41,491 nt of DNA from an uncultured Mycoplasma sp. (GTDB lineage Bacteria > Bacillota_I > Bacilli_A > RF39 > UBA660). Positions 8,936-33,147 of this stretch are shown here, in pieces (the stretch's first letter is position 1; each line of letters opens with the position of its first letter). Below the pieces are notes generated by a model, which worked only from the letters and a program-made list of their open reading frames with translations, ran no database searches and had not been told where the DNA came from. The position numbers and the translations under genes were made by a program. The stretch is taken from contig CAZIFN010000002.1 of the NCBI GenBank assembly GCA_964538205.1, positions 1-41,491 of the forward strand, read 5' to 3'.

Positions 8936-10936
8936 ATGAAAAATGAAAAATTAGAAATGTTTTTTTTAGCCACCATTATAATTATTATATCATCTTTTGC
9001 AGCCATGATTTCTGGTTCGGGAACAGTTTTTGGAATTGTAATGTGGACACTAATTGTTTCCGTGACTTATCTTACAAATCGCAAAAAAAGACTCTCAAAA
9101 AATAAAGAAACGGAAATACAACATGTTCCTATTAATCCAACTTCGTATATTAAAATATGCCCTAAATGTAAAACAAAACTAAATTTAAACGACAAGTTCT
9201 GCAAAGCTTGTGGCTATAAATATGTAATAGGAACAGATAATAATTTTAATAGAATAATTGTTAGCCAAAGTAACTATGATGAAATATTTAGATTAGATCA
9301 AGAAGCCATGTTAACTGCTTTTATTAATAGAGAGTTGAAAAAAGCACAGTTTGATCCAAACAAAATGTTACCAGCAGATGTCTTAAAAAGAAAAAATAAT
9401 CTTAGTATAATTTTTAATATACTAGTATTTATATACATATCATTAATATTTTTTCATTTTCCAACCCTAACATATATCATTGGCTTAGTTATATTAATAG
9501 TTTTTTATAGAAAGACCAAAAAATATGATTTAATGACATACTTAAAAAAAGAAATAAAGGCTAGGCCGGGTGAAAAAGTATCAAATATTATTATGCATGC
9601 TAAATCTAATTTAGTAACTGATAATAAACAATTCACTAGAAAGGTAGCATTTATAACCGCAATAGTCTTACCATTAATTATTTTTATGAATCCCCACATA
9701 ATGTATGAAGAAACATCAGAAGGATATGCAGTAAGATTTTATACCTTTGGTTTATCTAACTTTACTAGTGCAACAATACCTGCTACTCATAATGGTAAAG
9801 ATGTCGTCAGTCTAAGAGGAAATACTTTTTCCAATATGCCATTTTTAACTACAGTTTCTTTACCAGATACAATTGTAGAAATAAGAGGACAAGCATTTAA
9901 AAATGATGTTAGTCTAATAGATGTAAACATTCCAGTAAATTTAAAATATTTAGGCGGGGGAGCGTTTTATAATTGTATGTCAATAAGAAAAATAACTCTA
10001 CCAGATAGTTTAACAGAGTTAGGAGGAGAATCATTTTATGGTGCCAGCAACTTAGAAGAAATAACTCTATCAAAAAATCTAACTGAAATAAGAGGAAATA
10101 CTTTTGAAAATTGTACCTCCCTAGAAACAATTACTATTCCTGATAAAGTAACAAGAATAGGTGGACATGCCTTTTATAATAATAGTTCATTATCAAAAGT
10201 TAATATTTCTGAATATAGCCAATTAAATGAAATAGGCTCATCCGCATTCAGACTTTGTGGAAGATTATATGAAATAACTTTACCAAGAGGAGTTTATATT
10301 AATGAAAGAGCCTTTAAAGAAAGTCCAACTAGAATATACTATTTTGATCAAGAATTAATTGATAGAGATATATCTGGTAATAATACTTGGCTAAAAAAAT
10401 ATGAAAAAGTCACATTTACTGATTATAATATTAGCGTTAGTATAAAAACTTATGACTATAATCAAGAAAATTTAAATAAAGGAACAATTATTATTGACTT
10501 TAATGATGAAATAAATAATGATATTAGATTCAGTTTTTCTTCAAATGCTACAAAAAGTGACATAGAAAATGATGCTGTTAAATTTGTATATAAAGATTAC
10601 ATCTTTCAAGTACTTAGTTTTCAAGAAAACCAGATGGTAATCACAATTAATAAAAATATTGATTATAAAGATTTAAAAAATAAAGAAAGCTATAGTTTTG
10701 GAGAAGAAGGAGACTCTCTACAACTCTCTAATTCTAACTACATAATTAAACTAGAAAAAAAAGAACAAATAAATGGACGAATTAATTATTATTTTTCTTG
10801 TAATGGCTCTGAATTTAATCATTCAATTGGAAACGGGTATTATACTTCAGCAACTTATAATAATGATGAAGTAAAAATACAGCTTAGTTCTTTTTATGGA
10901 GCTCAAGGAATTTATTTAAATATTTATTACAATTAG
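8936..10936 (+). CDS. Multi-pass membrane protein with a cytoplasmic zinc-ribbon and an extracellular BspA-type leucine-rich-repeat (LRR_5) domain
   Basis: Hydrophobic helices lie at the N-terminus, around residues 165-190 and around 235-255. Zn-ribbon CPKCKTKLNLNDKFCKACGY. At least seven LRR units of about 23 aa (e.g. IPDKVTRIGGHAFYNNSSLSKVNI). RBS is AAGGAG. Confidence 0.75.
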   Translation: MKNEKLEMFFLATIIIIISSFAAMISGSGTVFGIVMWTLIVSVTYLTNRKKRLSKNKETEIQHVPINPTSYIKICPKCKTKLNLNDKFCKACGYKYVIGTDNNFNRIIVSQSNYDEIFRLDQEAMLTAFINRELKKAQFDPNKMLPADVLKRKNNLSIIFNILVFIYISLIFFHFPTLTYIIGLVILIVFYRKTKKYDLMTYLKKEIKARPGEKVSNIIMHAKSNLVTDNKQFTRKVAFITAIVLPLIIFMNPHIMYEETSEGYAVRFYTFGLSNFTSATIPATHNGKDVVSLRGNTFSNMPFLTTVSLPDTIVEIRGQAFKNDVSLIDVNIPVNLKYLGGGAFYNCMSIRKITLPDSLTELGGESFYGASNLEEITLSKNLTEIRGNTFENCTSLETITIPDKVTRIGGHAFYNNSSLSKVNISEYSQLNEIGSSAFRLCGRLYEITLPRGVYINERAFKESPTRIYYFDQELIDRDISGNNTWLKKYEKVTFTDYNISVSIKTYDYNQENLNKGTIIIDFNDEINNDIRFSFSSNATKSDIENDAVKFVYKDYIFQVLSFQENQMVITINKNIDYKDLKNKESYSFGEEGDSLQLSNSNYIIKLEKKEQINGRINYYFSCNGSEFNHSIGNGYYTSATYNNDEVKIQLSSFYGAQGIYLNIYYN

Positions 10937-10948
10937 GTTGGTGAAAAC

Positions 10949-12682
10949 ATGAAATTTATTCATTTATTATATGTGCCAACAATGGCATGTAATATGGGCT
11001 GCAAATACTGTTACTTAGAAGATAACACAGTAGATGAAAAAACAAAATATGGTGCATTAGATACCTTAAAGTATGCAATAGATAAATTCAAATTAGCAGA
11101 AGTAATTCCTTTCAATATTTCTCTTCACGGAGGAGAAGTAACTACTTTAGATAAAAATACTTTTCATGATATTATAAAATATATAGACAACTATTATAAA
11201 GAAAATAAGGAAATAATTACCAAAGCAGGATTTAAATTAGGTAGTCCACATATTAAAACAAATTTATATAACTTAGAAAAACATATTGATACGATAAAAG
11301 AATATAATGTTTCCATATCTGGAAGCCTAGATCTTCCTTTATCACTTCACAATAAATATAGAGTTACAAAAAACAATCAAAAAACTTTAGACAAAATATT
11401 AAAAAATATTGAGCTTTTACGTAATATACCAAATAAGAAAAAAGTATCAGCCACTATTTTTAAAGAACATTATAACTACCTTGATGAAATTATAGATGAT
11501 ATAAAATTTTTACATAATAATACATGTTTAGATATGAATGATTTTAACTTTATGATTGGATTTGACTATAATTCAAATGGCATTCTACATCACTTAACTG
11601 AAGAAGAACAAGTTGAGTTTTATAAACGTATGCATGAAGAATTTGACAATACAGATTTAGATTATGGTGTTTCAGGTCCTTGGTTTGATGAGTTTGGCCC
11701 AGAATACTGTACAAATTGTGATAACTGTGGCGAAAAATTCTTTCTACTAGAACGAAACGGTGATATATATTCTTGTGTACGAGGACAAAAAAATAAAGAT
11801 TACTATTATGGTAACATTTATACAGACAGTGTAGAACAAATATTACAAACCGCAAAAGATAAAATATATTCTAATCATAACAAATTAAACTTTAATGAAG
11901 AATGTAGTACCTGTGGATATTTATACTTATGCAAAACCGGTTGTCCTTTTGTAAAAAATAATTATATGACAAATAAAAGTTATACATGTAAACTCCAACA
12001 AAAAATGTATGAAGACCGAAACTTAAAAAAAGATGAATATAATGAAGAAACTGTATATAAATACGTTTTAAAAATGAGGTCTCAAGACGTTATTAAGTAT
12101 ATACCAAAAACAAAAACAACAGAATATCCATCATTAGAAGAGATTATAAAAAATGATGAAAATTTAAAATATATATATGATAATGAATCTTTCATATTAG
12201 AAATAGATAACATAAAATACTCTATTTCATCACAAATAATAAAAAAGACTAGAGATATAATATATATAACACCAGAAAGTAAAGTAAAAATATATATGAA
12301 AAAAGATCTTATTAAAGAACTATGTGATTATCCAGAAAATAATTCATTATATATAATTTTATTATCCGGAAATTTAGTAAAATATGGAGATGAAGAAAGA
12401 ACAAAACAAAGACATTTAGCAACCATTCAAATATATAAGGGAATATTAGACAGTGTAAACGAAAGTCAACAAAATTACTATTCATACGATATAACAAACT
12501 TATTTAATGAATACAAAGCTGGCTTCTCAAGTGACATGCCTAATAATATTTTCTTTACAACATCATCATTAAGAGATTATCATTACTTAAAACAAAAAGA
12601 AAATGCTTATTATCATATACAGGCTATAAATTTACCATTTCAAAATATAGAATTTTATTATATAGATAAGGAGTTAAAATAA
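10949..12682 (+). CDS. Radical SAM/SPASM-domain enzyme with an uncharacterised C-terminal extension of about 200 aa
   Basis: N-terminal CNMGCKYC (CX3CX2C), a GGE motif (LHGGEVT), and SPASM-type auxiliary cluster cysteines CTNCDNCG...DIYSC and CSTCGYLYLCKTGC (CX2CX5CX3C). At 577 aa it is much longer than typical maturases. Confidence 0.8.
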   Translation: MKFIHLLYVPTMACNMGCKYCYLEDNTVDEKTKYGALDTLKYAIDKFKLAEVIPFNISLHGGEVTTLDKNTFHDIIKYIDNYYKENKEIITKAGFKLGSPHIKTNLYNLEKHIDTIKEYNVSISGSLDLPLSLHNKYRVTKNNQKTLDKILKNIELLRNIPNKKKVSATIFKEHYNYLDEIIDDIKFLHNNTCLDMNDFNFMIGFDYNSNGILHHLTEEEQVEFYKRMHEEFDNTDLDYGVSGPWFDEFGPEYCTNCDNCGEKFFLLERNGDIYSCVRGQKNKDYYYGNIYTDSVEQILQTAKDKIYSNHNKLNFNEECSTCGYLYLCKTGCPFVKNNYMTNKSYTCKLQQKMYEDRNLKKDEYNEETVYKYVLKMRSQDVIKYIPKTKTTEYPSLEEIIKNDENLKYIYDNESFILEIDNIKYSISSQIIKKTRDIIYITPESKVKIYMKKDLIKELCDYPENNSLYIILLSGNLVKYGDEERTKQRHLATIQIYKGILDSVNESQQNYYSYDITNLFNEYKAGFSSDMPNNIFFTTSSLRDYHYLKQKENAYYHIQAINLPFQNIEFYYIDKELK

Positions 12683-13041
12683 TGAATAAAGAACCCGAAA
12701 CATATGAAGAATTAATTAGACAAAAAAAATGTGTAGACATAACAAAGTATTATGATATAACTGCAGAAGAACTAGAAGAAATATACAACTTTCTAACAAA
12801 AAATGTTAATGGAGAAGTACTAGCTGGATTAGATAATATAAGGCTAAACGTAGGAAATACTACTATAGCAATAATAAATGCAACTCTTAAACTAGTAGCA
12901 GGAATAGATGGTTTAAAAATAACCAATAGTTCTTTTAAGATAATTCCTCACTACTCACCATCATCAGGATCTAGTTCATATGGAGGATCATCATCAAACA
13001 ATAACAATAATAACAATAACAATAACAATAATAATAGATAG
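12682..13041 (+). CDS. Small protein with a low-complexity Ser/Gly/Tyr tail ending in 13 consecutive Asn; candidate rSAM substrate
   Basis: Its start overlaps the rSAM stop (TAATG), implying translational coupling. The C-terminus reads HYSPSSGSSSYGGSSS-N13-R. No Cys-rich core and no TM helix. Confidence 0.6.
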   Translation: MNKEPETYEELIRQKKCVDITKYYDITAEELEEIYNFLTKNVNGEVLAGLDNIRLNVGNTTIAIINATLKLVAGIDGLKITNSSFKIIPHYSPSSGSSSYGGSSSNNNNNNNNNNNNNR

Positions 13042-13052
13042 GAGTAAAAAAT

Positions 13053-14066
13053 ATGCCATTAATATCTGATAATTACCATATAAAAAAATTAAATAAATAT
13101 GGAATAAATATAAAAACAAAATATATAGTTGATAATAAAATATTAGAACGTAATACTAATAATTCTAATAATGATGATATTCTAAATGGTATTAGATGTG
13201 AAAAAGGCTATTATTTAAAAGATAAACTATTACATACAGAGAAAATATTTGACTCTAGAATAGAATATACATTTATATCAAAAGAACAAGAAGCAACAGA
13301 ATATACTTGTCCAAATTGTGGTATGCATTCAAAACTAAAAGACTTTATAGATTGTTGTCCTTATTGTCATACGTATTATAATATTGATTATACAAATAAA
13401 AATTTAGCAACCAAGTATCATTATGATAGAGTATTAGCAAATACAGGTTATAGAATAATAACAGCCATAATAGACTTCATAATTAGTTTAATATTAAGCT
13501 ATATATTTATAAAAATAACATCAAGAACATTTAATAATTATGATATTTCAAAAATATTTATATATGGACTAATATTATCACTTGTACTGTATTACATATT
13601 CTATATTGCAGATGCCTATATTATCTTAACACCAATAAAAATATATAAAGATAAACAAAATGAAAAACAAAAATCTTTCTGGGAAAGAACAAAAATAGAT
13701 AAGAAAAAGTTTTTTAATAACTTAAATTATGAAATAGGAAAAAAATATTATAATATAGATAATATAATTGATTATGATATTATAGATTATATAGAATTTA
13801 AGGATTATACTAAAGACAATAAACTATATGTAGAAGTAAATGCAGAAGTAAGAATTGTCTATTATGAAAATAATAAAATACATTCTAAAAATATTAAAGA
13901 TAAATATATAATGAGAAAAGAAAATGATGATATTTTAGAATTAAAAGATAAAGCAAATTTAATAAAATGTCATAACTGTGGTGCTTCAATTGATGCTAAT
14001 AAAGGAGAATGTACATATTGTCATACTAAGACAAAATATCTTCAAGCCTGGGTATTAACTAACTAA
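13053..14066 (+). CDS. Membrane protein with two zinc-ribbons flanking two TM helices
   Basis: CPNCG...CCPYCH (N-terminal) and CHNCG...CTYCH (C-terminal). Hydrophobic segments IITAIIDFIISLILSYIFI and IFIYGLILSLVLYYIFYI. RBS is GGAG. Confidence 0.65.
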   Translation: MPLISDNYHIKKLNKYGINIKTKYIVDNKILERNTNNSNNDDILNGIRCEKGYYLKDKLLHTEKIFDSRIEYTFISKEQEATEYTCPNCGMHSKLKDFIDCCPYCHTYYNIDYTNKNLATKYHYDRVLANTGYRIITAIIDFIISLILSYIFIKITSRTFNNYDISKIFIYGLILSLVLYYIFYIADAYIILTPIKIYKDKQNEKQKSFWERTKIDKKKFFNNLNYEIGKKYYNIDNIIDYDIIDYIEFKDYTKDNKLYVEVNAEVRIVYYENNKIHSKNIKDKYIMRKENDDILELKDKANLIKCHNCGASIDANKGECTYCHTKTKYLQAWVLTN

Positions 14067-14807: not shown

Positions 14808-15906
14808 ATGGAAATAAAAGAAATGAAAGAAATACTAAATAAATATTTACTAGAAGTAGAAAATCTATGGAGGTCACTTTGACATAGATGAAAAAAAAGA
14901 AAAGTTAAAAGCACTACAAGCAGAAACTGAAAATCCTAATTTTTGGAATAATCGTGAAAAAAAAGACAAAGTATTATCTGAGCTTAGTAGTATTAAAGAA
15001 ACAGTTAATAGTATAGAAAATGTACAACAAAATATTAAAGACACTATAGAAATTGTAGAATTATTAGAAGAAGAACTAGATGAAGAATTATTAAAACAAG
15101 TAGAAATAGTAACTAATAAATTACCTGAGGATATAGAAAACTTAAATCTATTTTTACTACTATCAGGTCCCTATGATGCATCGGATTGCATTTTAGATAT
15201 TCACTCAGGTGCCGGTGGTACAGAAGCTTGTGATTGGGCCTTAATGCTATATCGTATGTATACTCGCTGGTGTGAAAAGAAAAAATATAAAATAGATTTA
15301 TTAGATTATCAAACAGGTGAAGAAACTGGTATAAAAAGTGCCTCTCTTTTAATAAAAGGACATAATGCTTATGGATATTTAAAAAATGAAAAAGGCGTTC
15401 ATCGTTTAGTAAGACTGTCACCATTTGATGCTAATAATCGTCGTCATACATCTTTTGCATCAGTAGAAATAACTCCAGAAATAAAGCAAGATAACACTAT
15501 AGAAATAGATGAAAAAGACTTAAAGATAGATGTTTATCGTTCATCAGGATCCGGAGGACAAGGAGTAAATACAACAGATTCGGCAGTAAGAATAACACAC
15601 TTACCAAGTAAAATAGTAGTCACTTGTCAAAATGAAAGAAGTCAAATTCAAAATAAAGAGCAAGCACTCCGAGTATTAAAAAACAAATTATTAGTAAAAA
15701 AATATGAAGAACAGGAAAAAGAGTTAAATAAATTAAAAGGAAATCAAATGAACATAGAGTTTGGTTCTCAAATAAGAAGTTATGTAATGCATCCATATTC
15801 GATGGTAAAAGATCATCGTACAAATTGTGAAACAAGTAATGTAGAAAAAGTATTAGATGGAGATATAGACGAATTTATAAAAAGTAATTTAAAAAGAGGG
15901 TTATAA
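14808..15906 (+). CDS. prfB: Peptide chain release factor 2, expressed via a programmed +1 ribosomal frameshift
   Basis: ORF0 is ATG 14808 plus 24 codons to CTT TGA C (TGA 14880-14882). The +1 frame from GAC 14881 is continuous with track ORF 15244-15906. RF2 motifs SPF (RLSPFD) and GGQ (SGSGGQGVN) are present. Confidence 0.9.
14868..14883 (+). other. prfB recoding site (internal SD-like GGAGG plus slippery CTT TGA C)
   Basis: TGG AGG TCA CTT TGA C: GGAGG lies 3 nt upstream of the CTT-TGA-C shift site, the same layout as the classical RF2 autoregulatory site. Confidence 0.85.
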
Positions 15907-15907
15907 T

Positions 15908-16789
15908 ATGAATATTTTTTCAAAAAACAAAAACTTTAGAATACTAGAAGAAATAAAAGAAAAATCAAAATATAAAAGATTAGTCAAATTTATCATTGGC
16001 TGTTTTTTAGTTGCTATTGCATATAATCTTTTCTTAGCACCAAATGACATTGTAGCAGGTGGTGTAGGCGGAATTGCTATAATATTAAATGAAATATTTA
16101 ATATAGAATACTTTATTGTAATATTGATAAGTAATCTTATTCTTTTAATAGTAAGTTATATATTTTTAGGTAAAGAAAAAACAAAAGGTTCAATACTTGG
16201 CTCATTAGTTTTTCCAATTTGTGTAAAATTAACATCTAATATTGGAGCATATATAGATATAGATAATACCCAATTATTACTATCAGCTGTCTTTGGTGGC
16301 GTACTATATGGTTTTGGTGCCGGTATGATTTTTAAAGCTGGATTTACCGGCGGAGGAACAGACATTATAAGTCAATTAATTAATAAATATTTAAAACTTA
16401 GTATCGGAAAAAGTATTCTATGTACAGACGGCAGCATCGTAGTTTTATCATCATTTGTTTTTGGAACTAACAAATTACTATATTCTATAATTACACTTTA
16501 TATAATTAGTTTAATTTCAGATAGAGTTATACTTGGAATTTCAGATAGTAAAGCATTCTATATAGTAACAGATGAAGAAAAAGCAATTAAAGAATACATA
16601 CTTAAATACTTAAATCACGGAGTAACAGTATTCAATGCTAAAGGTGGTTTTGCTAAAGAAAAACAAACTGTATTAATGTGTGTATTACCAACAAAAGAAT
16701 ATTATAGATTAAAAGAGGGAATATCAGAAATAGATCCAGATGCATTCTTTGTAGTAACTGATGCTTATGAAGTATTCGGAGGTGAATGA
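15908..16789 (+). CDS. YitT family membrane protein (DUF161 repeats plus C-terminal DUF2179)
   Basis: Multi-pass membrane N-terminus with GGxGG motifs. The C-terminal block ILGISDSKAFYIVTDE...VTVFNAKGGF...DAFFVVTDAYEVFGG is typical of the family. Confidence 0.8.
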   Translation: MNIFSKNKNFRILEEIKEKSKYKRLVKFIIGCFLVAIAYNLFLAPNDIVAGGVGGIAIILNEIFNIEYFIVILISNLILLIVSYIFLGKEKTKGSILGSLVFPICVKLTSNIGAYIDIDNTQLLLSAVFGGVLYGFGAGMIFKAGFTGGGTDIISQLINKYLKLSIGKSILCTDGSIVVLSSFVFGTNKLLYSIITLYIISLISDRVILGISDSKAFYIVTDEEKAIKEYILKYLNHGVTVFNAKGGFAKEKQTVLMCVLPTKEYYRLKEGISEIDPDAFFVVTDAYEVFGGE

Positions 16790-16790
16790 T

Positions 16791-17648
16791 ATGGATGAAA
16801 TAATAGAAAAACTAAAACGAAAAAAAGTTGGAAAAAGAGTTGCAATGCTAATAATTTCTCTCCTTTTTAGTGCCATAGTATATAATTTGTTTTTATTACC
16901 TGTAAATTTAGTAACCGGTGGCTCAAGTGGAATTGCTACAATAACTAAATATGTATATGATATAGATCCAGCTTTAATGATTTTAATAGTATCAATAATA
17001 TGTGCTATTTTAAGCCTCATGTATTTAGGTCCAGAAGTAACAGCTGTAACATTATTAGCAAGCGTATTATACCCTTTATTTGTAAAAATAACTGAACCAT
17101 TGGTTAGTATAATTCAAATTGATTATAGTGATATGTTTGTTATAACATTATTTGCAGGCGTCTTAAATGGAATAGCTAATGGAATAATGTATAAAACAGG
17201 ATACAGTAATGGTGGCTTACCAGTAATCAGCCAGATATTAGAAAAATACCATAAAATACCAATTGCCAAAACTAGTGCTTTTATGAATATAACAATTGTA
17301 CTCATTGGTGGAATATTCTTTGGATCAACCAATGTTATGTATGCTATTATTCTTATCTATTTAAATAGTATAATAATAAATAAAGTATTATTAGGAATAT
17401 CAAATAATAAAGCCTTCTATATTGTTACAACAGAAGAAGATCAAATTAAAAGTTATATTATAAGAACATTAGGACATAGTGTAACTGTTTTTGATGTAAA
17501 AGGTGGTTTCTTAAATAAGAAAAGTAAAGTAGTATTAACAGTTGTTCCAACAAGCGAATATTATCGTGTAACAGAAGGTATAAAAGCAATTGACAGTAAT
17601 GCATTCTTTGTTGTGACTGACTCATATGAAGTAGTAGGTGGAAAATAA
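16791..17648 (+). CDS. YitT family membrane protein, tandem paralog
   Basis: Same architecture as the upstream gene. I prefer ATG 16791 (GGAGGTGAATGAT upstream) over track start 16761, which overlaps the previous gene. Confidence 0.8.
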   Translation: MDEIIEKLKRKKVGKRVAMLIISLLFSAIVYNLFLLPVNLVTGGSSGIATITKYVYDIDPALMILIVSIICAILSLMYLGPEVTAVTLLASVLYPLFVKITEPLVSIIQIDYSDMFVITLFAGVLNGIANGIMYKTGYSNGGLPVISQILEKYHKIPIAKTSAFMNITIVLIGGIFFGSTNVMYAIILIYLNSIIINKVLLGISNNKAFYIVTTEEDQIKSYIIRTLGHSVTVFDVKGGFLNKKSKVVLTVVPTSEYYRVTEGIKAIDSNAFFVVTDSYEVVGGK

Positions 17649-23774: not shown

Positions 23775-23816
23775 AAAAAGCGGTTTTCTTAATAAAAAGA
23801 AACACTGCTTTTTTTA
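23773..23816. terminator. Bidirectional terminator between convergent genes
   Basis: A7-GCGGTTTTCTT, loop, AAGAAACACTGC-T7: an imperfect stem with an A-run on one side and a T-run on the other. Confidence 0.55.
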
Positions 23817-24347
23817 TAGTTTTACAATATTTAAAAAGGCATTAGTACCATCAGCAGGTGAAATAGTAACAGTAGATGTTGATTCAATACTTAAACTTAT
23901 ATTATCACCAGCTGCAAATGAATTAATAGAACTTCCAATAAAATCCACATCTTGATTAGCAGTTACGTCTTTAATAATTGTAGTACTACCGATTGGTGTA
24001 GTATTTTGACTTATTTCAACTGTTATATTAGCATTAGTATTAGAAGAGCCAGAAAAGAAATAATCAACTTTATAGTTTCCAGCTTCAACTATTGTTAGAG
24101 CATTTTGAACTCCTGTTGTTACATTTGATGTAGGACCAGTACTGCCTAAAGGTATAGTTTGAGCAACATTTTGATCTAAATTAATAGTATTAGTAGCATT
24201 ATCATATTTGCGACCGAAAGCACTAGTAGCAGAAACACCGCTCGGTCCAGTTGGCCCTGTCGGACCTATTGGCCCAGTAGGGCCAGCGACGTAGCAAACT
24301 TTCTTTGCCTTAAAATCATTACAGTTATTTATACAGTCATCAGACAT
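23814..24347 (-). CDS. Short collagen-like protein with a BclA-like (C1q/TNF-like) C-terminal domain
   Basis: VCYVAGPTGPIGPTGPTGPSG is followed by a beta-rich domain of about 140 aa (AGNYKVDYFFSGSS...). RBS is AAGGAG. Confidence 0.75.
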   Translation of the reverse strand: MSDDCINNCNDFKAKKVCYVAGPTGPIGPTGPTGPSGVSATSAFGRKYDNATNTINLDQNVAQTIPLGSTGPTSNVTTGVQNALTIVEAGNYKVDYFFSGSSNTNANITVEISQNTTPIGSTTIIKDVTANQDVDFIGSSINSFAAGDNISLSIESTSTVTISPADGTNAFLNIVKL

Positions 24348-24527: not shown

Positions 24528-25145
24528 TTATAAGTCTTTTTCAAAAATATATTGAGCATGTGCAGTTTTTACATTTTGTTCAAAAAATTTGATATAGCTT
24601 TCTTTTACTTCATCAATTTCAAAAAAAATGAATCCATAAGTGTCAGACTGCCAAGAAAATCCTTCTTTTAAATTAAATTTATTTGCTTTTTTTACATCGT
24701 CAATATTTATAAAGTCAAAGACTTGTATCATTAACGAAGGTTTATATCCAAGTTTTATATATAGAGGACATGCTCTAAAACGTGCACCTAAATCAATATG
24801 TTTAATTTCTTTATACTTACATCTTTTTTCAAATTCGTTAATTAGTGATTTTGCGTAGCCTTTATTTCTATAATTGAGATCAACTGCAATTGTTCCAAGC
24901 GTAATTTTCTTTTTGTTTGTATCCATTCCTTTTCCAGTGATTGCGGCGATAATCTTTTTGTCTTTTGTAATATACATTAATAATTCATTATCAATTTCTA
25001 ATTGCTTATTCATTTCCATAAAACGTTCACCCATCGTAAAATAGTGTTCGTTGTTTATTTTTGCATCCTCATAAAAAGTCATTGAAAGAAAATCAAATAC
25101 CTTTTTTAGTTCTTTTTTATTTTTTACAGTTTTAATATTAATCAT
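24528..25145 (-). CDS. GNAT family N-acetyltransferase (last gene of the RiPP-like operon)
   Basis: Motif A NYRNKGYAKSLINEFEKR. Co-oriented with the PqqD-like gene and 42 nt downstream of it. Confidence 0.75.
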   Translation of the reverse strand: MINIKTVKNKKELKKVFDFLSMTFYEDAKINNEHYFTMGERFMEMNKQLEIDNELLMYITKDKKIIAAITGKGMDTNKKKITLGTIAVDLNYRNKGYAKSLINEFEKRCKYKEIKHIDLGARFRACPLYIKLGYKPSLMIQVFDFINIDDVKKANKFNLKEGFSWQSDTYGFIFFEIDEVKESYIKFFEQNVKTAHAQYIFEKDL

Positions 25146-25187: not shown

Positions 25188-25475
25188 TCAAAAAAATTCA
25201 TTTTCTTCATAGCCTAAATTAATCCATTGACTTTCATGAAAGTTATTGTTTGAATTAGGAATATTATCAATTAATTGCAAATTTTTTAAATCATCTAATA
25301 TATCATTTTCTAATTCAATTCCTAATGGATGATTGGGATTATATCCAGTTTTTAATTTTTCAAATAGTTCATAAGAACTAAGTGGCAATTCATAATTTTG
25401 AATAGTTGAACAATCACAAATCAGTAAGTAATTCTCTTCTTTTCTGTATTTAACATATTTTTTTAAGTAAATCAT
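25188..25475 (-). CDS. PqqD-like / RiPP recognition element (RRE) candidate
   Basis: 95 aa. Its start overlaps the stop of the rSAM/SPASM gene (TAATG). Size, position and the pattern YLLICDCSTIQNYELPLSSYELFEKLKTG...DILDDLKNLQLI fit stand-alone PqqD-family peptide chaperones. No HMM search was run. Confidence 0.5.
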   Translation of the reverse strand: MIYLKKYVKYRKEENYLLICDCSTIQNYELPLSSYELFEKLKTGYNPNHPLGIELENDILDDLKNLQLIDNIPNSNNNFHESQWINLGYEENEFF

Positions 25476-26617
25476 TAAGCACTCTCCCTAATTCCATATT
25501 CTTCTCTGTTGTTTTTTTGTTTTGCTTCTTCTAATTTTCTTTTAAGTTCTTCTAGTTTATATAACCCTAAATTTTTACCATTTTCAATACAATAAGGTGT
25601 TGGCATCAATGGATCGTCAAACCATTGAATGCTTTGTGGAGGACACCTATCACATTTATTTTTAACTTTACATCCATCGCATCCACGAGTTTGATACGAT
25701 CTAAATATGTTAAAAGGCTTACCGTCCCATATTTCTTTTAATGCTTTTTTAGTAATGTTATCCCACTTTATTTCTTTTTTCGGTGGATTTACTCTAGCTA
25801 AAGGGCAAGGTGTTGTAATTCCATCTGAATTTATTTCACAAAACCATTTTGCAGCCGGACATTCATAATAAATCATAGAAGATGCTGTTTCTTTTTTTAA
25901 ATTTGGCATATCTATAAAATTAACCATAATATTATTATTTGCACATTCTTTTTGAAGATCAAACCAATATTTATTTGGAAGTTCAGATTCAGATACAAAT
26001 ATTTCACTATTTTCCTTTGCTCTACCAGAAATAGATATTGTAGACAAAGACCAGTTACAAGGCTTTAAAGTAATCACTAGATTTTTTAATTTATCTATTT
26101 TATGAATGTTTTTCGGATGGATACAGGTTGCAATAGAAGTTCTAATGTTCGCACTGGTAAATGCCTTAATACTACTTACTGCTTTATCAAATAATACTTT
26201 TTCGGATTTTCCCTGAACATTTTTTCTTAAATAACCATGTGTAATCCAATCTGCACCATCTAGACTTATTTGTATTCCTAAAATATAATTTTTTGCCTTT
26301 AATATTGCTTTTAATATTTTATCACTAAACACTCCATTAGTTGTTAGCATAAAATAAATTTCATTTTTTATTAATGCATCTATTATTTTTATGAAGTCCG
26401 GATGAGTTGTCGGCTCTCCACCGGAAATATTAACAAAAAACACGCCGTTTTTTGCTAAATCTTCAATAATTTTTAACCATTCATCTCCTGTCAATTCTTT
26501 TTCTGGAATATTATTTCCATAACTGCCATAACAGTGTTTACAGCGCATATTACATTTTGAAGTTAAAATTAAATAGCAGTTATGTGGTATTTTCAGACAT
26601 TGATTATTATTTTTCAT
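25475..26617 (-). CDS. Radical SAM/SPASM-domain peptide-modifying enzyme (PqqE/MftC-like architecture)
   Basis: CNMRCKHC near the N-terminus, SGGEPT, and C-terminal auxiliary-cluster cysteines (YYECPAAKWFCEINSDG...PCP; CDGCKVKNKCDRC). RBS is AAGGAAAG. Confidence 0.8.
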   Translation of the reverse strand: MKNNNQCLKIPHNCYLILTSKCNMRCKHCYGSYGNNIPEKELTGDEWLKIIEDLAKNGVFFVNISGGEPTTHPDFIKIIDALIKNEIYFMLTTNGVFSDKILKAILKAKNYILGIQISLDGADWITHGYLRKNVQGKSEKVLFDKAVSSIKAFTSANIRTSIATCIHPKNIHKIDKLKNLVITLKPCNWSLSTISISGRAKENSEIFVSESELPNKYWFDLQKECANNNIMVNFIDMPNLKKETASSMIYYECPAAKWFCEINSDGITTPCPLARVNPPKKEIKWDNITKKALKEIWDGKPFNIFRSYQTRGCDGCKVKNKCDRCPPQSIQWFDDPLMPTPYCIENGKNLGLYKLEELKRKLEEAKQKNNREEYGIRESA

Positions 26618-26872
26618 AGTTACCTACTTTCCTTTTTTACTATTTTTATTACATTATTTGATAAAATATATATTTTTTATCTGATAAATTGGAATATCCA
26701 AGCCAACCAAGATGTTCTCTTGTGCTAAAAAAATATTGTCACTTACAAATCTATTTTTCTTTTTCTATGTCCTTTCGAGAACTCTTCAATAGATAAGGAA
26801 CATTGCTGTTAATAATGTTAGGCTTTTTCCGCTTTGATTATTTATATCAATATAGATTTTATATTAATTTAA

Positions 26873-27856
26873 TTATTTCTTTCTTGCAAGATAGTATTGA
26901 AAAATACTATTATACTTCTTACTGTATCCTATTTGTTCAATTAATTCTAAATTTAAATCCTTAAATTTTTCCTTTTTAATTAATATTGGAGTGTGACCAA
27001 TACAAATTATGCATCCATTTTTTTTAACTTTTTTAACTAGTAAATCAAAAAGTTTATTCGCATCATGAGTATTTACAACTCCACCATTAAGAAACCTTAA
27101 TATTAATAAATCTACACTATTGTTTTTGATTGGAGAATCAAATGCATTACAACATTTTGATTCATCTACGTTCTTTTTAGAATAATTAACCATATCTTCG
27201 CTCATATCATGTCCTACTGTTGTGCATGTTGGAATTACATCTTTTATCACTTTTAAAAATTCTCCAGTTGAACATGCAGGATCATAAACTATTTTAGGAT
27301 TTAATTTATATTTTTTTATTATTTCAATTGTATAGTCTCTAATATGTTTTTCTCCTGTAGATAAATATGAAGCTATTTCATCATTTACATTCCAGTTTAA
27401 GTTATTAGATGTTTGTTCTAAATTTGTGTCAAAATATTTAAAACGAAATGGATAAAATATATCACATAACTTTCGGTTCTTTACTATATTATTAAACATT
27501 TTACGTTTTTCTTGATTAGTAAAGGGATAATATTCAAGAGAAATTTTTCTATATTTATAATTACAATTTTTTAAAATTCCTAATAACATATTCTGCGTGA
27601 TATTACTACAATTGATTGACTTCAGTTGATTGTTTAAATATAATTGTGAAATAGTTTTTCTACCTAATATTACTGTGTTGTTATAAGTAATATAGAAGAT
27701 AGTTTGGGGCATATTGAAATCATATTCAACAAATTCTGTACATTTTCTATCATAAATTTGAATTTTATCATCAACATTAATATCTTCTAATGATTGTTTA
27801 TATAATTCGATTTCTCGATTTATAATTTGCTCTTGCATTAACAATTTATTTTTCAT
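26873..27856 (-). CDS. Class I SAM-dependent methyltransferase with an uncharacterised N-terminal domain of about 180 aa
   Basis: Motif I VYDPACSTGEF, an acidic loop VGHDMSEDM and motif IV-like DLLILRF. Confidence 0.7.
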   Translation of the reverse strand: MKNKLLMQEQIINREIELYKQSLEDINVDDKIQIYDRKCTEFVEYDFNMPQTIFYITYNNTVILGRKTISQLYLNNQLKSINCSNITQNMLLGILKNCNYKYRKISLEYYPFTNQEKRKMFNNIVKNRKLCDIFYPFRFKYFDTNLEQTSNNLNWNVNDEIASYLSTGEKHIRDYTIEIIKKYKLNPKIVYDPACSTGEFLKVIKDVIPTCTTVGHDMSEDMVNYSKKNVDESKCCNAFDSPIKNNSVDLLILRFLNGGVVNTHDANKLFDLLVKKVKKNGCIICIGHTPILIKKEKFKDLNLELIEQIGYSKKYNSIFQYYLARKK

Positions 27857-27871
27857 TGTTTCCCTTTCAAA

Positions 27872-27916
27872 AATTTAAAAAGAAGCAACATTATTAAAAA
27901 TATAATATTGCTTTCC
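27872..27916 (-). terminator. Hairpin plus T-run directly after the precursor ORF (probable leaky terminator)
   Basis: On the minus strand AAGCAATATTAT pairs with ATAATGTTGCTT (one mismatch), followed by CTTTTTAAATTT. The hairpin starts 5 nt after the TAA stop. Confidence 0.55.
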
Positions 27917-27920
27917 TTTA

Positions 27921-28034
27921 TTAGTATTGATTTTGGCAGCAAACAGACATTGCTAATATTTTCATTACTTTAGTATTCTTTTTAGTATTAACTTTTACCG
28001 CAACTGTTGCTAATCCGGCAGTTCCTGTTCCCAT
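27921..28034 (-). CDS. Candidate RiPP precursor peptide, 37 aa: MGTGTAGLATVAVKVNTKKNTKVMKILAMSVCCQNQY
   Basis: Hand-translated; too short for the ORF track. Strong RBS GAGGAGGG lies 4 nt before the ATG. It sits between rSAM/SPASM and methyltransferase genes on the same strand and is followed by its own hairpin. Confidence 0.6.
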   Translation of the reverse strand: MGTGTAGLATVAVKVNTKKNTKVMKILAMSVCCQNQY

Positions 28035-28091
28035 AATACCCTCCTCTCTAATTATATATATAAACCTATTTTAAAATAAACAGATTTATAT

Positions 28092-29369
28092 CTAACGTTT
28101 TAGAATATGCTTTTTTATACAATTATTCAAGTTATATTTATATGTTTCACATTCTGGCTTGTTTTGTTTAATTGAAATAAATGGACATCCTCCCATGCAA
28201 ATTGGAAGTATCTCACATTGACAACATTCATCATATTCAAACGGATTCCATGTGTAAAATCTGTTATTTAATACACCTGTAATTTCATTGTCAAAAGGAT
28301 AGTCATATACCGTAGCTATTCTTCTTTCTGGTCTGCCAATATCGTTTTCGCATTTAAATAAGTTTAAATTTGGGTCAATTACGAAAGTACCAACTTTAGC
28401 AGCTCTACAATAAATTGGCTTTTGTCTTGGAAAAGGGGATGCCATATCTTTGTCTTGACTCATATTATTATCAAACTCGTCTAATAGAGAAGCATATTCT
28501 TTTTTATTAAAATAACTATCGTTTTCATTTTTACATGAATCGGTATATTCTCTAACTAAACCTAAGTACATCTCTAATTTAAGCTCATTTGTAACATATT
28601 TTCTCAATTCTTCAATATGTGTATAATTTTTTTTATCTACATTCATTCTGATAACTGGATTAATACCATGTTTTTTTGCTATTAATGAGTTTGCTACAAT
28701 CTGATCAAAAGTTGCCAATCCCCCTATTAGACACCTTCTTTGGTTATGAATGTGTTCAGGACCATCCAATGTAATAAATAATTGATTAATTTTTAAATCT
28801 GGAAGTTGCTTTATAATGTTCTCTGACAATAAGTAACCATTTGTGGTTAAGAACGCATTATAATCAACATTTAAGCTATTACACACTTCAATTATTTCTT
28901 GACTCATTTTTTGTATTATACTAAATACTAATAGCGGCTCTCCGCCAAACCATATTAAGTTTAATTTCGTATATCCAAGTGAAAGTTGTTTTTTAATGAA
29001 CTTTATAATTTCTATTTGTTCATCTTCATTTATAATTTTACCATATCTATCTTCATAACAATATGGACATTTAAAGTTACAACGCAAAGTTGGTGCAATG
29101 GTAATTGTTAATAAGTCTTTTTCCTGTTGTTCTTTGATATATCTGTCTTTTAAAAATTTTAGTTCATCAAAGTCGTCATTAATTATCATGCCTTTTTTGA
29201 ATAATTCATGATATGCTTTAATATTGAAGTCATCAGGCAAAACGTTGGTTGAAGATTTTAAATTTTCATAAGTTTGTTTAGAAATTTCTGCAAATGATGA
29301 ATTTAAAATATTAATTAAATAAAATTTCTTGCCATATTTTTTAAATATATTATATTTTGATAGTTTCAT
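28092..29369 (-). CDS. Radical SAM/SPASM peptide maturase with an N-terminal RRE-like domain (sacti/ranthipeptide-synthase-like architecture)
   Basis: About 90 aa precede CNFKCPYC. Then GGEPLL and the SPASM motif CCQCEILPICMGGC (CX2CX5CX3C). I prefer start ATG 29369 (MKLSKYN), because the track start 29384 lies inside the RBS GAGGAG. Confidence 0.8.
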   Translation of the reverse strand: MKLSKYNIFKKYGKKFYLINILNSSFAEISKQTYENLKSSTNVLPDDFNIKAYHELFKKGMIINDDFDELKFLKDRYIKEQQEKDLLTITIAPTLRCNFKCPYCYEDRYGKIINEDEQIEIIKFIKKQLSLGYTKLNLIWFGGEPLLVFSIIQKMSQEIIEVCNSLNVDYNAFLTTNGYLLSENIIKQLPDLKINQLFITLDGPEHIHNQRRCLIGGLATFDQIVANSLIAKKHGINPVIRMNVDKKNYTHIEELRKYVTNELKLEMYLGLVREYTDSCKNENDSYFNKKEYASLLDEFDNNMSQDKDMASPFPRQKPIYCRAAKVGTFVIDPNLNLFKCENDIGRPERRIATVYDYPFDNEITGVLNNRFYTWNPFEYDECCQCEILPICMGGCPFISIKQNKPECETYKYNLNNCIKKHILKR

Positions 29370-29390
29370 GTAAATTCTCCTCATTCTGAA

Positions 29391-30521
29391 TTATTTTGTA
29401 GTTTTTCTTAATACTTTTGGTGCAGTATTATTATCTGATTGCTTTGATGATTCTTCATATATTGATGGGATATGACCGAAAACTAATGCTTTTTTTCTAA
29501 TCATTGTTGTAACTTCTTGCCTATTGTGGAATAAACTTTTAATTGCTAATACATCATAATTTTGACTTAAGATTTGAATGGATTCTTTGATATCTTCTTC
29601 AACTTTGTTTGGTAATTTTAAAGTTACAATGGCTATGCCATTATCCTTTAATGATTTTACAAGCTTATTCATAATATTTGATGTAGCTTGCGGCTCAATG
29701 TTCATATCATTTACAATTATATCAAAGAAATTTTCAAAATCCAAATCCTCAATTCTACATTTATAATGATGAATCTTCGGATTGGATTCAAGTTCTGGTT
29801 TTAGATTACCGGGATCAACTGCCACAACTTCGTATCCATAATCTGCTAATACTTTTGTCCATCCGCCTGGAGAGGCACCAATATCCAATGCATAGCCGGT
29901 TCCGTCCAAAGTAACATTAAACTTTGATAAAGCTTCTTTTAATTTATTTTCAGCTCTTGAAATAGAACGCCCTCCTTTACCACAAATTCTGTATTCGTCA
30001 CAGTGAAAATTTAAATTTTCTTTACTAGAAGAGAATCCTAAATAATAGTCATTATGATGAATCATAATTGATAATACTTTGATGTCATCATTTTTTAAAC
30101 TGGTATCTGAAAATGTTGGTATATTTCCCCTTTGCTCATAGTGAGATCCAACGAACACTTCTAAATCCTTTGATGAATAATCTAATCCATTTTTACCGCC
30201 ACTGATAATTCTACATTGTACTGCAAATGATTCTTTTGTTAATGTTGATATACTATTAATACCTGATAAAATTTCTTGTTCGTCCAACTCTAAATTCTCA
30301 GTGATTTTACCATTTTTCATTACTGGCATTATATGTTTAATAAAAATGGGTGATTTCTCTAATAATTTGTTTATAAATTCTTCTTTTTCTAATTTAGAAT
30401 CAATCATTAAAACACTGTCTGAAAAGACACTTTCAACTTCTAATTCTTCATCAACTGCTATCAATTCACTTAGCATGCTTTTTCTAAAACATGGTGTATA
30501 AGTAATAATAAATTTGCTCAA
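29391..30521 (-). CDS. RlmM-like SAM-dependent methyltransferase (THUMP-like N-domain plus FtsJ-like 2'-O-MTase domain)
   Basis: SISRAENKLKEAL...YALDIGASPGGWT...VVAVDPGNL...IVNDMNIEP...VTLKLP aligns block-by-block with my recollection of E. coli RlmM (SRSTLKLEEAF, VDLGACPGGWT, SVDNGPM, CDMVEKP, NLKLP). RBS is GAGGAGG. Confidence 0.65.
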   Translation of the reverse strand: MSKFIITYTPCFRKSMLSELIAVDEELEVESVFSDSVLMIDSKLEKEEFINKLLEKSPIFIKHIMPVMKNGKITENLELDEQEILSGINSISTLTKESFAVQCRIISGGKNGLDYSSKDLEVFVGSHYEQRGNIPTFSDTSLKNDDIKVLSIMIHHNDYYLGFSSSKENLNFHCDEYRICGKGGRSISRAENKLKEALSKFNVTLDGTGYALDIGASPGGWTKVLADYGYEVVAVDPGNLKPELESNPKIHHYKCRIEDLDFENFFDIIVNDMNIEPQATSNIMNKLVKSLKDNGIAIVTLKLPNKVEEDIKESIQILSQNYDVLAIKSLFHNRQEVTTMIRKKALVFGHIPSIYEESSKQSDNNTAPKVLRKTTK

Positions 30522-30590: not shown

Positions 30591-30990
30591 ATAATATCAC
30601 AATTTATATCAAAGAAAGTATCAAGGCCATAATACAATCCCACATTCCATTGATAAATATTATAAAGGCATTTTTATAAAAGTCAACAAAAAATTAGTAA
30701 TAAAAGCTTTGATAAAAGATTAACTTTTAATGTTATAATATAAATATATATGAGGTGATTTGGTGTGTTAGTAATTTTTGAAAGATTAGATAATTTTGGA
30801 ATAACTGTACTGGGCAAATGATAAAAGATTATTTAACTAGAAATATACTGAAATATCAAAAAATGAAACAAATATTTGTAAATAAATAAAAAAATGATGT
30901 CATAAGGACCTTTAGATTCTGCTTTGAAAGCATATTTGTTTGCAACAGATAGATACATAAGAATAAAATAAAAGGAGTCTATAGAAAAGA

Positions 30991-32116: not shown

Positions 32117-32169
32117 TAAGTTTATTTGATTAAATACATTAAAATATAATAGAAATGGAGGAATTTATA

Positions 32170-33147
32170 ATGAAAAATATAGATATAACAAAACCGGTGT
32201 TTCATATTACTGAAGATAATAAAAAAATTATAAACGAAATAGAAAAAAGACTTGATTTAATTATTATTGATGATAATGAAAAAAAAAGAAAATTGCAGAT
32301 TAAGTCTAAAGTTAGATCAATTCATTCATCATTAGCGATTGAAGCAAACTCTTTATCATTAGAATCAGTTGAGAGTATTGTTGAAAATAAAACAGTTTTA
32401 GGTAATAGAAAAGAAATTCAAGAAGTAAAAAATGCTAATGAATTGTATGAACACATAAACGAATATAATTGGAAAGATGAGAATGATTTTTTAAAAGCTC
32501 ATACATTAATGATGAAGTATTTTGATGATGATAATGGTTATTATAGAAATCATGGTGAGGGAGTAAAAAAAGGAAATGAAGTAATTTATTCAGCTCCACA
32601 ATCTATATTAGTTCCATCTCTTATGAGAAGTTTATTTGAATTTATGATTGATAATGAAAATAAAATTCATCCATTAATATTATCTTCTATATTTCATTAT
32701 TATTTTGTATATGTTCATCCATTTAGCGATGGTAATGGTAGAATGGCTAGATTTTGGGTAAGTTTGATTTTAACCAATTGGAATTCAAAATTTAAATATA
32801 TTCCTATTGAAGAAGAAATATATTTAAATCAACAAAAATATTATGATTCTATTGCACAATGCCATATTAATGGTAATGCGAATGTATTTATTGATTTTAT
32901 GTTAATGTGTATTAATTCATCATTACAAAAAACTACCCAGAAAACTACCCAGAAAATAAAATTAAATAACAATCAATTAAAAATTATAGAATTAATAAAA
33001 GAAAATCCTAAGGTTACAAGAAATGAATTAGCCAGTATTTTGAATATTACATCAGATGGTGTTAAATATAACTTAAAAAAATTATTGGATAATGATATTA
33101 TTGAAAGAATTGGACCAGATAATGGTGGTTATTGGGAAGTAAAATAA
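32170..33147 (+). CDS. Fic family protein (AMPylase-type) with a C-terminal winged-helix DNA-binding domain
   Basis: Fic motif HPFSDGNGRMARFW (HxFx[D/E]GNGRxxR). N-terminal SLAIEAN resembles the inhibitory [S/T]xxxE[G/N] helix. C-terminal wHTH LKIIELIKENPKVTRNELASILNITSDGVKYNLKKL. The start at 32170 follows GGAGG. Confidence 0.85.
   Translation: MKNIDITKPVFHITEDNKKIINEIEKRLDLIIIDDNEKKRKLQIKSKVRSIHSSLAIEANSLSLESVESIVENKTVLGNRKEIQEVKNANELYEHINEYNWKDENDFLKAHTLMMKYFDDDNGYYRNHGEGVKKGNEVIYSAPQSILVPSLMRSLFEFMIDNENKIHPLILSSIFHYYFVYVHPFSDGNGRMARFWVSLILTNWNSKFKYIPIEEEIYLNQQKYYDSIAQCHINGNANVFIDFMLMCINSSLQKTTQKTTQKIKLNNNQLKIIELIKENPKVTRNELASILNITSDGVKYNLKKLLDNDIIERIGPDNGGYWEVK

Follow-up and report, generated by a model that had tools for sequence, protein, structure and literature searches.

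The 37-codon gene and the closest described systems

Among described peptides that are synthesized by ribosomes and then modified post-translationally (RiPPs), mycofactocin and pyrroloquinoline quinone (PQQ) have the biosynthetic layouts closest to the one considered here. The mycofactocin precursor MftA ends in ...CGVY, with a conserved yet unmodified Cys close to its C-terminal Tyr, and is encoded with the RiPP recognition element (RRE) MftB, the radical S-adenosylmethionine (rSAM)/SPASM enzyme MftC, the peptidase MftE, and the glycosyltransferase MftF. The subject of this analysis is a minus-strand operon on a 41,491-nucleotide stretch of DNA from an uncultured Mycoplasma sp. (contig CAZIFN010000002.1; this whole stretch is hereafter called the window), and in particular its unnamed 37-codon open reading frame (ORF), which very probably encodes a RiPP precursor. 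The gene lies directly after a first rSAM gene (rSAM1) and is followed by genes for an isonocardicin-synthase-like protein, a second rSAM enzyme (rSAM2), a 95-aa protein, and a GNAT acyltransferase (Table 1). The whole appears to work like an RRE-dependent rSAM/SPASM RiPP pathway: precursor and rSAM genes are clustered and co-inherited, rSAM2 carries the CxxxCxxC motif and the SPASM Cys residues, and an RRE is recognized by its fold. On score and gene content, the cluster falls outside the mycofactocin, PQQ, and Clo7bot systems.

The likeness to mycofactocin lies in a short precursor with an invariant extreme C-terminus that ends in Tyr and has a conserved Cys a few residues upstream, in an rSAM/SPASM enzyme that lacks an N-terminal RRE of its own and is paired with a discrete one of about 95 aa, in MftC being the best or near-best NCBIfam match of rSAM2, and in a hydrolase gene within the cluster. 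The glycosyltransferases of sister clusters and the phenol-alkylating-type enzyme encoded here also parallel the decoration of the Tyr-derived phenol by MftF. Unlike in mycofactocin, however, the rSAM2 score of 104 bits is below the MftC cutoff of 265 (TIGR03962), the peptide and the RRE match no Mft model (no NCBIfam match), and the tail is C-x-x-N-Q-Y instead of C-G-V-Y, with Phe able to replace Tyr. The cluster is also without an MftD-like oxidase and a creatininase-type MftE, its universal partner is a GNAT that is absent from mycofactocin clusters, and it is carried by anaerobic Bacilli of the gut and by uncultured bacteria from the environment, whereas mycofactocin belongs to Actinomycetota.

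With PQQ (precursor PqqA, RRE PqqD, rSAM/SPASM enzyme PqqE), the cluster shares the tiny precursor with invariant Glu/Tyr-type residues, the discrete RRE, and the rSAM/SPASM enzyme, and among the solved relatives of rSAM2, PqqE ranks second, after SkfB. By this comparison, the invariance of the core points to a product whose structure is fixed. Unlike PQQ loci, the cluster has no homologues of PqqB, PqqC, and PqqF, the PqqE score is 97 bits, below the cutoff of 381, and Gln/Glu is adjacent to Tyr, in contrast to the E-x-x-x-Y spacing of PQQ.

The maturases of sactipeptides and ranthipeptides (SkfB, CteB, PapB, and QhpD) are likewise rSAM/SPASM enzymes that act on Cys-containing precursors via an RRE. 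SkfB is the solved structure nearest to rSAM2, CteB the one nearest to rSAM1 (with anSME also among the closest), and a second Cys in the peptide tracks rSAM1, as a thioether donor would. The Clo7bot maturase model TIGR04334 gives the best family match of rSAM1, but all scores against the sactipeptide/ranthipeptide models and those of the uncharacterized Clo7bot/CefB/TIGR04463 families are far under their cutoffs (rSAM1 reaches 318 of 600 bits for TIGR04334). A Clo7bot locus used for comparison (our label L001) has seven tandem Cys-rich precursors 5' of the maturase and an ABC exporter, whereas the present cluster encodes a single precursor, whose core is invariant and which has one or two Cys, and it lacks an exporter.

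Conservation and selection of the peptide gene

Read directly from the letters, the minus-strand ORF at 27921–28034 (ATG ... TAC TAA TAA) translates as MGTGTAGLATVAVKVNTKKNTKVMKILAMSVCCQNQY. The sequence-only reading had picked out this ORF, with its ATG and TAA stop, as an untracked candidate precursor. The ORF itself is borne out; untracked holds for that reader only, as the public record already has a nameless gene call, which forms an unnamed singleton 90% cluster. The only Cys residues of the peptide are C32 and C33 (positions -6 and -5 counting from the C-terminal Tyr), the sole phenol is that of the C-terminal Tyr, and the peptide is without a hydrophobic helix and without a signal sequence. 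Codons 1–13 have 51% G+C against 26.7% for the window (top 0.74% among 39-nt windows). Both the lone CC pair and the GC-rich N-terminal third had been remarked on earlier, correctly.

To follow the gene across genomes, we used the contigs of rSAM1 homologues, from 90% down to 41% identity, as orthologous loci. In every locus traced, a gene of 36–44 aa lies directly after rSAM1 (for example MSTGTAGLAITKAKTDAKKTTVVMQEVAMATCCQNQY, MNTGTVGLAMANVKSNTKNTKALKKVAMAVCCQNQY, and MEEISTGTVGLAVLSHDDVQDESIPDLKILFPLDILVCCQNQF), with peptide orthologues in the equivalent position at L081–L096, L102, and L103; the ORF is intact and present in all orthologous operons examined. The family hidden Markov model (HMM) detected exactly one copy per related locus and, as a negative control, no family peptide in 80 loci around more distant Clo7bot-type rSAMs. 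Scanning genome contigs with the rSAM1 profile gave, among the matches listed, only Clo7bot-type relatives at no more than 37% identity.

A profile search of 5.8 billion proteins, with a 43-aa family member as the first alignment row, returned 27 clusters with E-values down to 1e-17, none of them named, and T3, T5, G7, and CCQNQ are invariant across these clusters. The full CCQNQY tail, whose conservation had been anticipated, is invariant in the gut group and takes the generalized form C-x-x-N-Q/E-Y/F across the wider family. Invariant residues are encoded by two to four synonymous codons between loci (ACA/ACT/ACG/ACC, GGA/GGT/GGG, TGC/TGT, AAT/AAC, and TAC/TAT), and the whole-gene pN/pS of the peptide gene is 0.34–0.57. 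Substitutions are thus not synonymous-blind, and the synonymous turnover together with the pN/pS indicates selection on the protein sequence. The peptide gene is real, conserved, and under selection.

A signature shared by a wider family

A metagenome scan with the rSAM2 profile returned 80 loci. Every rSAM2 homologue locus of at least about 32% identity with sufficient flank has a peptide of the same design (for example MEEDYKIGPGTAGLAQRISSEYELKQKDIEEKLYVLKQKILMPCGHNQY), and none below about 30% identity has one. In total, 53 distinct peptides were gathered from both sets, sampled in the gut of humans, mice, and rabbits, in activated sludge and groundwater, and in sediments of lakes and the sea. 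Cys occupies position -6 in 52 of them and Asn position -3 in all 53, while position -2 is Gln (48) or Glu (5) and position -1 is Tyr (49) or Phe (4). The aromatic residue stands at the extreme C-terminus in 52/53, the other peptide having a single extra Ser. Besides the N-terminal GTxG(L/I)A motif, a hydrophobic K-L-Y-V-L-type block is common to the family. Most members have a single Cys, and only the first Cys (-6) is near-universal.

Among ten diverse long loci, the only protein families in common are rSAM2 and RRE/GNAT, the latter usually a single RRE-GNAT polypeptide; the minimal system therefore consists of the peptide, rSAM2, and RRE-GNAT. The co-occurrence with rSAM genes that a precursor was expected to show is strict for the peptide and rSAM2 (all long enough loci at or above about 32% identity). 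By this comparison of loci, the family-defining enzyme is the second rSAM (25475–26617) rather than the adjacent rSAM1.

Two mouse-gut contigs (L098 and L099) encode an RRE 39% identical to the 95-aa protein and an adjoining rSAM 48% identical to rSAM2. L098 also has a 44-aa gene, MNSEKVMPGTSGLAQNVSSRKSIMGKKLKVLKKVKAGTCQQNEY, encoding a peptide with a single Cys and furnished with a GAGGAGGG Shine-Dalgarno (SD) sequence, and a terminator hairpin. The remainder of this locus is unlike the window cluster and includes a B12-rSAM, AMP-binding and peptidyl carrier protein genes, a carbamoyltransferase, GT4 glycosyltransferases, and PIG-L. Genes of these kinds (GT4, PIG-L deacetylase, carbamoyltransferase, B12-rSAM, and AMP-binding/carrier proteins) are found in the sister clusters L098:1491-15282, L107, and L109. 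From this gene content, their product may be a form that is glycosylated or acylated, and a hydroxyl handle, for instance the Tyr phenol, would fit the presence of GT4, PIG-L, and carbamoyltransferase genes in these clusters instead.

No NCBIfam model matched any component at cutoff, environmental members included. The peptide and its signature enzyme rSAM2 are covered by no Pfam or NCBIfam model and no solved structure, the open-access literature searched by motif and keyword yielded nothing relevant on either, and viral contigs gave only generic rSAM matches and no close relative. We therefore describe an apparently undescribed RiPP family that extends from gut bacteria to groundwater, with a formerly unnamed 37-codon ORF as the gene that defines this coherent group of wide distribution. 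Its compact signature, a GTxG(L/I)A...C-x-x-N-Q/E-Y/F peptide with a dedicated rSAM/SPASM enzyme and an RRE that is often fused to GNAT, is searchable. A near-invariant core without a conserved exporter or protease is unusual among antimicrobial RiPPs and recalls peptide-derived cofactors. The carriers include abundant uncultured gut Bacilli, and the product could be of importance to the physiology of gut microbes or to their interactions with one another.

The 95-aa RRE and the two radical SAM enzymes

The 95-aa protein has no Pfam, NCBIfam, or PDB sequence match. A phmmer search of 1.8 billion representatives found just 34 relatives, which were used as the alignment for AlphaFold, and the resulting model consists of a beta-sheet followed by helices. 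Its top Foldseek matches (TM-score about 0.55, probability 1.0) are all RREs, namely TbiB1 and another lasso-peptide B1, each with the leader peptide bound, and further matches are the RRE domains of CteB, ThcOx, SuiB, LynD, and PbtF. As modelled, the 95-aa protein thus has an RRE fold. Two of its relatives are fusions, one to a Clo7bot-like rSAM and one to GNAT. We also observed a pair of RRE homologue and GNAT in a 1.6-Mb genome (L100:8001-8914, and L101) where neither an rSAM nor a family peptide was detected within 8 kb. RRE and GNAT can therefore occur together outside the rSAM system.

The invariant Cys residues of rSAM2 are C22/C26/C29 plus eight in the C-terminal part. Environmental rSAM2 members score 71–103 bits against the MftC model (TIGR03962, cutoff 265).

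Cys at position -5 occurs in 14/14 loci with a Clo7bot-like rSAM1 and in 0/11 long loci without rSAM1, an association that is suggestive of rSAM1 acting on Cys33, not statistical proof of it. The co-variation thereby predicts the residue targeted by the accessory rSAM and points to the C-terminus as the site of modification. The sequence-only reading had held that leader and core cannot be told apart from the sequence; they can now be separated with fair confidence. We infer that the C-terminal hexapeptide is the core and that the N-terminal GTxGLA is the recognition motif.

Expression signals around the gene

The SD sequence of the gene, GAGGAGGG, does rank best in the operon, as had been noted, but it nearly ties with the GAGGAGG before the first gene (29391–30521). 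A comparison of upstream regions showed that an SD of the AGGAGG type precedes the peptide orthologue at every locus. Just 5' of the SD lies an AT-rich element, GGTTTATATATA(N)TAAT (28051–28075, minus strand), with equivalents in L081, L084, L096, and L098; it is kept even in L098, a 36% GC locus. Its position and partial conservation hint that the GGTTTATATATA element could possibly be the precursor gene's own promoter or an operator.

The stop codon is followed by a hairpin (5' arm 27902–27913, loop 27895–27901, 3' arm 27883–27894, then CTTTTTAAATTTTT) with a folding energy of -15 kcal/mol and z = -3.6, equalled by 0/200 shuffles. The layout of an intrinsic terminator is present, with a 12-bp stem and CUUUUUAAAUUUUU directly after it; a consensus terminator scan missed it because of the few G-C pairs in the stem. 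The earlier placement 5 nt after the stop is roughly right: the core stem begins at 7–8 nt, or at 4–5 nt if weak A-U pairs are counted. A hairpin is found at the equivalent place in 7/8 distinct loci (z mostly -4 to -6.6), and L098 has one too. The minimal environmental cassettes have only about 25 nt between the peptide gene and the rSAM2 gene and no hairpin. The hairpin goes with the gene order of the gut and L098 types. For the gut-type order, an excess of precursor over downstream enzymes would fit both this hairpin and the strong SD.

Other genes of the operon

The 26873–27856 product matched PDB 8zhu with E = 3.1e-31 (residues 45–326 aligned to 44–325), whereas Pfam recognized only generic methyltransferase domains. 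The isonocardicin synthase Nat and its animal homologue McalACT move the 3-amino-3-carboxypropyl group of S-adenosylmethionine (SAM) to phenol oxygens, tyrosyl included (PMC11869996). The homology is near full-length and the peptide offers a C-terminal Tyr, which on this analogy is the likely target of the Nat-like enzyme; the homologue thus predicts a tailoring reaction on Tyr. Unlike the present protein, the known members belong to non-ribosomal pathways, and our search of the open-access literature turned up no RiPP described as carrying a decoration from this enzyme family. The Nat-like gene is absent from one informative Phe-ending group (L088), but also from the Tyr-ending L085 and L093. 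Its absence from these otherwise complete loci indicates a tailoring option, not a core enzyme.

The first gene of the operon encodes an FtsJ-like protein whose profile finds RlmM as its best solved relative (E = 5e-11) at equivalent positions, and the start of its methyltransferase domain matches that of RlmM. The K-D-K-E tetrad (K193, D272, K302, and E336) is invariant in eight FtsJ-like orthologues, aligned to the RlmM motifs. The protein is below the RlmM equivalog cutoff (74.7 vs 176 bits), and no homology was found between it and the methyltransferase of L098. Its role may be in tailoring or in self-resistance; that it is a self-resistance rRNA methylase is a less likely possibility, under which the ribosome would be the target of the product.

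Most gut loci have an Amidohydro_2 gene of about 526 aa between the Nat-like gene and rSAM2 (intact, with 525 aa, in the 91%-identical L096). The window retains a remnant with an internal deletion of about 1.3 kb (junction about 26747–26750), a lost start codon, and several frameshifts, while the remaining operon genes are all intact.

Table 1 Features of the operon in the window
Feature	Position	Strand	Remarks
Best sigma-70-like promoter match, TTGACT-16-TATAAT	30659..30686	-	Upstream of operon; 11/12 positions; consensus match only
FtsJ/RlmM-like 2'-O-methyltransferase-type protein	29391..30521	-	First operon gene; syntenic at most loci
rSAM1, radical SAM/SPASM maturase akin to Clo7bot/CefB/TIGR04463	28092..29384	-	Accessory enzyme
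TATAAT-like box in partly conserved GGTTTATATATA element	28051..28056	-	Upstream-region alignment; no score in promoter scan
Shine-Dalgarno GAGGAGGG	28039..28046	-	4 nt 5' of ATG
Precursor peptide gene (candidate)	27921..28034	-	37 codons + stop, then second in-frame TAA (TAA TAA tandem)
N-terminal motif GTxG(L/I)A, here TGTAGLA	28008..28028	-	Codons 3–9; 53-peptide alignment; proposed leader recognition motif
CCQNQY	27924..27941	-	Codons 32–37; proposed core/modification site; family consensus C-x-x-N-(Q/E)-(Y/F)
Terminator/attenuator-like hairpin + T-run	27868..27913	-	12-bp stem, 7-nt loop
Isonocardicin-synthase (Nat)-like SAM-dependent enzyme	26873..27856	-	Candidate 3-amino-3-carboxypropyl transferase; 327 aa
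Decayed Amidohydro_2 remnant	26618..26872	-	255-nt gap; blastn vs L096, frame analysis
rSAM2, radical SAM/SPASM signature maturase (predicted)	25475..26617	-	Best NCBIfam match MftC
Discrete RRE (predicted)	25188..25475	-	95 aa; AlphaFold 2 model, pLDDT 85; Foldseek
GNAT acyltransferase	24528..25145	-	Core partner; fused to RRE in most environmental loci

Proposed pathway and alternative explanations

In the pathway that we propose, all chemical steps of which are inferred, the N-terminal leader with its GTxGLA motif and a hydrophobic K-V-L-K-type block would be bound by the 95-aa RRE, which would hand the C-terminal C-x-x-N-Q-Y-COOH to rSAM2 for the family-defining radical modification. This could be a thioether ring in which Cys(-6) is joined to a carbon atom of N, Q, or Y, an option that fits SkfB being the closest solved relative of rSAM2; to our knowledge, all known Cys-dependent SPASM peptide maturases form thioethers. 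It could also be a reaction of the mycofactocin kind on the aromatic residue at the C-terminus, which would explain why that residue is always last. The data fit either chemistry, and both are leading candidates. In the gut-Bacilli version, the Clo7bot-like rSAM1 (28092–29384) would use the extra Cys at -5. The Nat-like enzyme would probably alkylate the Tyr phenol with a 3-amino-3-carboxypropyl group, the GNAT would acylate an amine of the leader-bound peptide, and trimming or release of the product would fall to the amidohydrolase, which this genome has lost. With its strong SD and post-stop hairpin, the peptide gene would have a higher output than the downstream enzymes.

Several observations weigh against this interpretation. 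As conservation extends to both termini of the peptide, the assignment of leader and core depends on indirect arguments, and the association of the CC pair with rSAM1 spans only about three lineages and lacks phylogenetic independence. For the RRE, the Foldseek E-values are modest (best 1.5e-3), although the list of matches is coherent, and hhalign gave no significant profile match between the 95-aa protein and the N-terminus of rSAM1. The hairpin is missing from the minimal environmental cassettes, and the T-runs are weak at several loci. No conserved protease or exporter was found in the cluster when diverse loci were compared, leaving leader removal and product fate unexplained, and the amidohydrolase is a pseudogene here, so the pathway in this genome may be incomplete or decaying.

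The intact orthologues, the conserved tail, the co-occurrence with rSAM genes, and a substitution pattern that is not synonymous-blind nevertheless support the precursor proposed by the sequence-only reading over the other explanations of the gene. Short ORFs are abundant on both strands of a window with 26.7% GC, and one of them might by chance follow an SD-like purine run in AT-rich DNA. The conservation data refute such an origin here, and its probability is negligible: length, frame, both termini, and position are kept where the flanking enzymes are only 41% identical, related peptides lie beside rSAM2 enzymes of just 32–50% identity, and profile E-values reach 1e-17 among 5.8 billion proteins. 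A small ORF that ends a few nt before a terminator-like hairpin, with tandem Cys codons near the stop, also has the classical layout of an attenuator. The peptide would then be no substrate but a regulatory leader peptide whose translation, for example when ribosomes pause on the two Cys codons or sit on the stop codon, governs hairpin formation and thereby read-through into the downstream enzyme genes. We rejected this explanation, which is very improbable, on the pattern of conservation: residue identity is kept over three blocks with synonymous turnover, well beyond the putative regulatory codons, most family members have a single Cys, the minimal cassettes leave no room for a hairpin in the roughly 25 nt before rSAM2, and a dedicated RRE is present.

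Somewhat less remote, yet still improbable, is a real small protein that is no enzyme substrate and serves as a regulator, immunity factor, or membrane-active toxin, with the rSAMs acting on a small molecule or RNA. It would agree with a first operon gene that resembles an RNA 2'-O-methyltransferase with an intact K-D-K-E tetrad, with the lack of a conserved protease or exporter, and with the resemblance of rSAM2 to cofactor-biosynthesis rSAMs (AhbD and NirJ), which is about equal to that to peptide maturases. The strict co-occurrence of peptide, rSAM2, and RRE together with the RRE fold is, however, the signature of a RiPP enzyme-substrate system; the invariant residues are at the extreme C-terminus, one of them co-varying with an accessory rSAM, and the peptide has neither a hydrophobic helix nor a signal sequence. 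Within the preferred precursor reading, it is possible, if on balance rather unlikely, that the product is not of the antibiotic type and that a conversion resembling those of mycofactocin and PQQ turns the invariant N-Q-Y and the nearby Cys of a sacrificial peptide into a small molecule of fixed structure (cofactor or signal) whose Tyr phenol is decorated differently by lineage. The decoration would be aminocarboxypropylation in gut Bacilli and GlcNAc-type glycosylation, deacetylation, and carbamoylation elsewhere, and the product would be a new peptide-derived metabolite that is widespread in anaerobes, including common human-gut bacteria.

Genomic context

The presence of UvrAB, WhiA, Lgt, FtsEX, PcsB, and prfB indicates that the window is chromosomal. 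The nearest UvrB proteins with a name, 89% identical, are those of uncultured metagenome-assembled genomes labelled 'Bacilli bacterium'. The genes flanking the cluster differ between genomes, and the cluster therefore appears to be mobile or accessory. In the closest relative (L096:247-3609), it adjoins two phage-type integrases and a PemK toxin. Genes 3' of the GNAT (a collagen-like gene here, various others in L081 and L091) were considered as cluster members and rejected, as they are not conserved. The collagen-like gene is a 177-aa ORF just downstream (23814–24347, minus strand) with a GPTGPIGPTGPTGPSG repeat after a Cys-rich N-terminus and no family match.

A third radical SAM/SPASM protein (10949–12682, 577 aa) resembles anSME, DynA, and PapB but is under all cutoffs. 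Its neighbours (8936–10936, 12682–13041, and 13053–14066) encode a BspA-type leucine-rich-repeat protein and two ORFs without a family match. From its gene content, this region may be a second peptide-maturase locus on the contig.

The sequence CTTTGAC at 14877–14883 (plus strand), which we take to be the classical prfB +1 frameshift site, lies 5' of an ORF (15244–15906) carrying the C-terminal domains of release factor 2. Programmed frameshifting is thus probable for the release factor 2 gene of the window, and would make UGA a stop codon in this organism. Elsewhere on the plus strand, the regions 15908–17648 and 32155–33147 encode a tandem pair of YitT/DUF2179 paralogues along with a Fic/DOC protein whose C-terminal domain is a winged helix.

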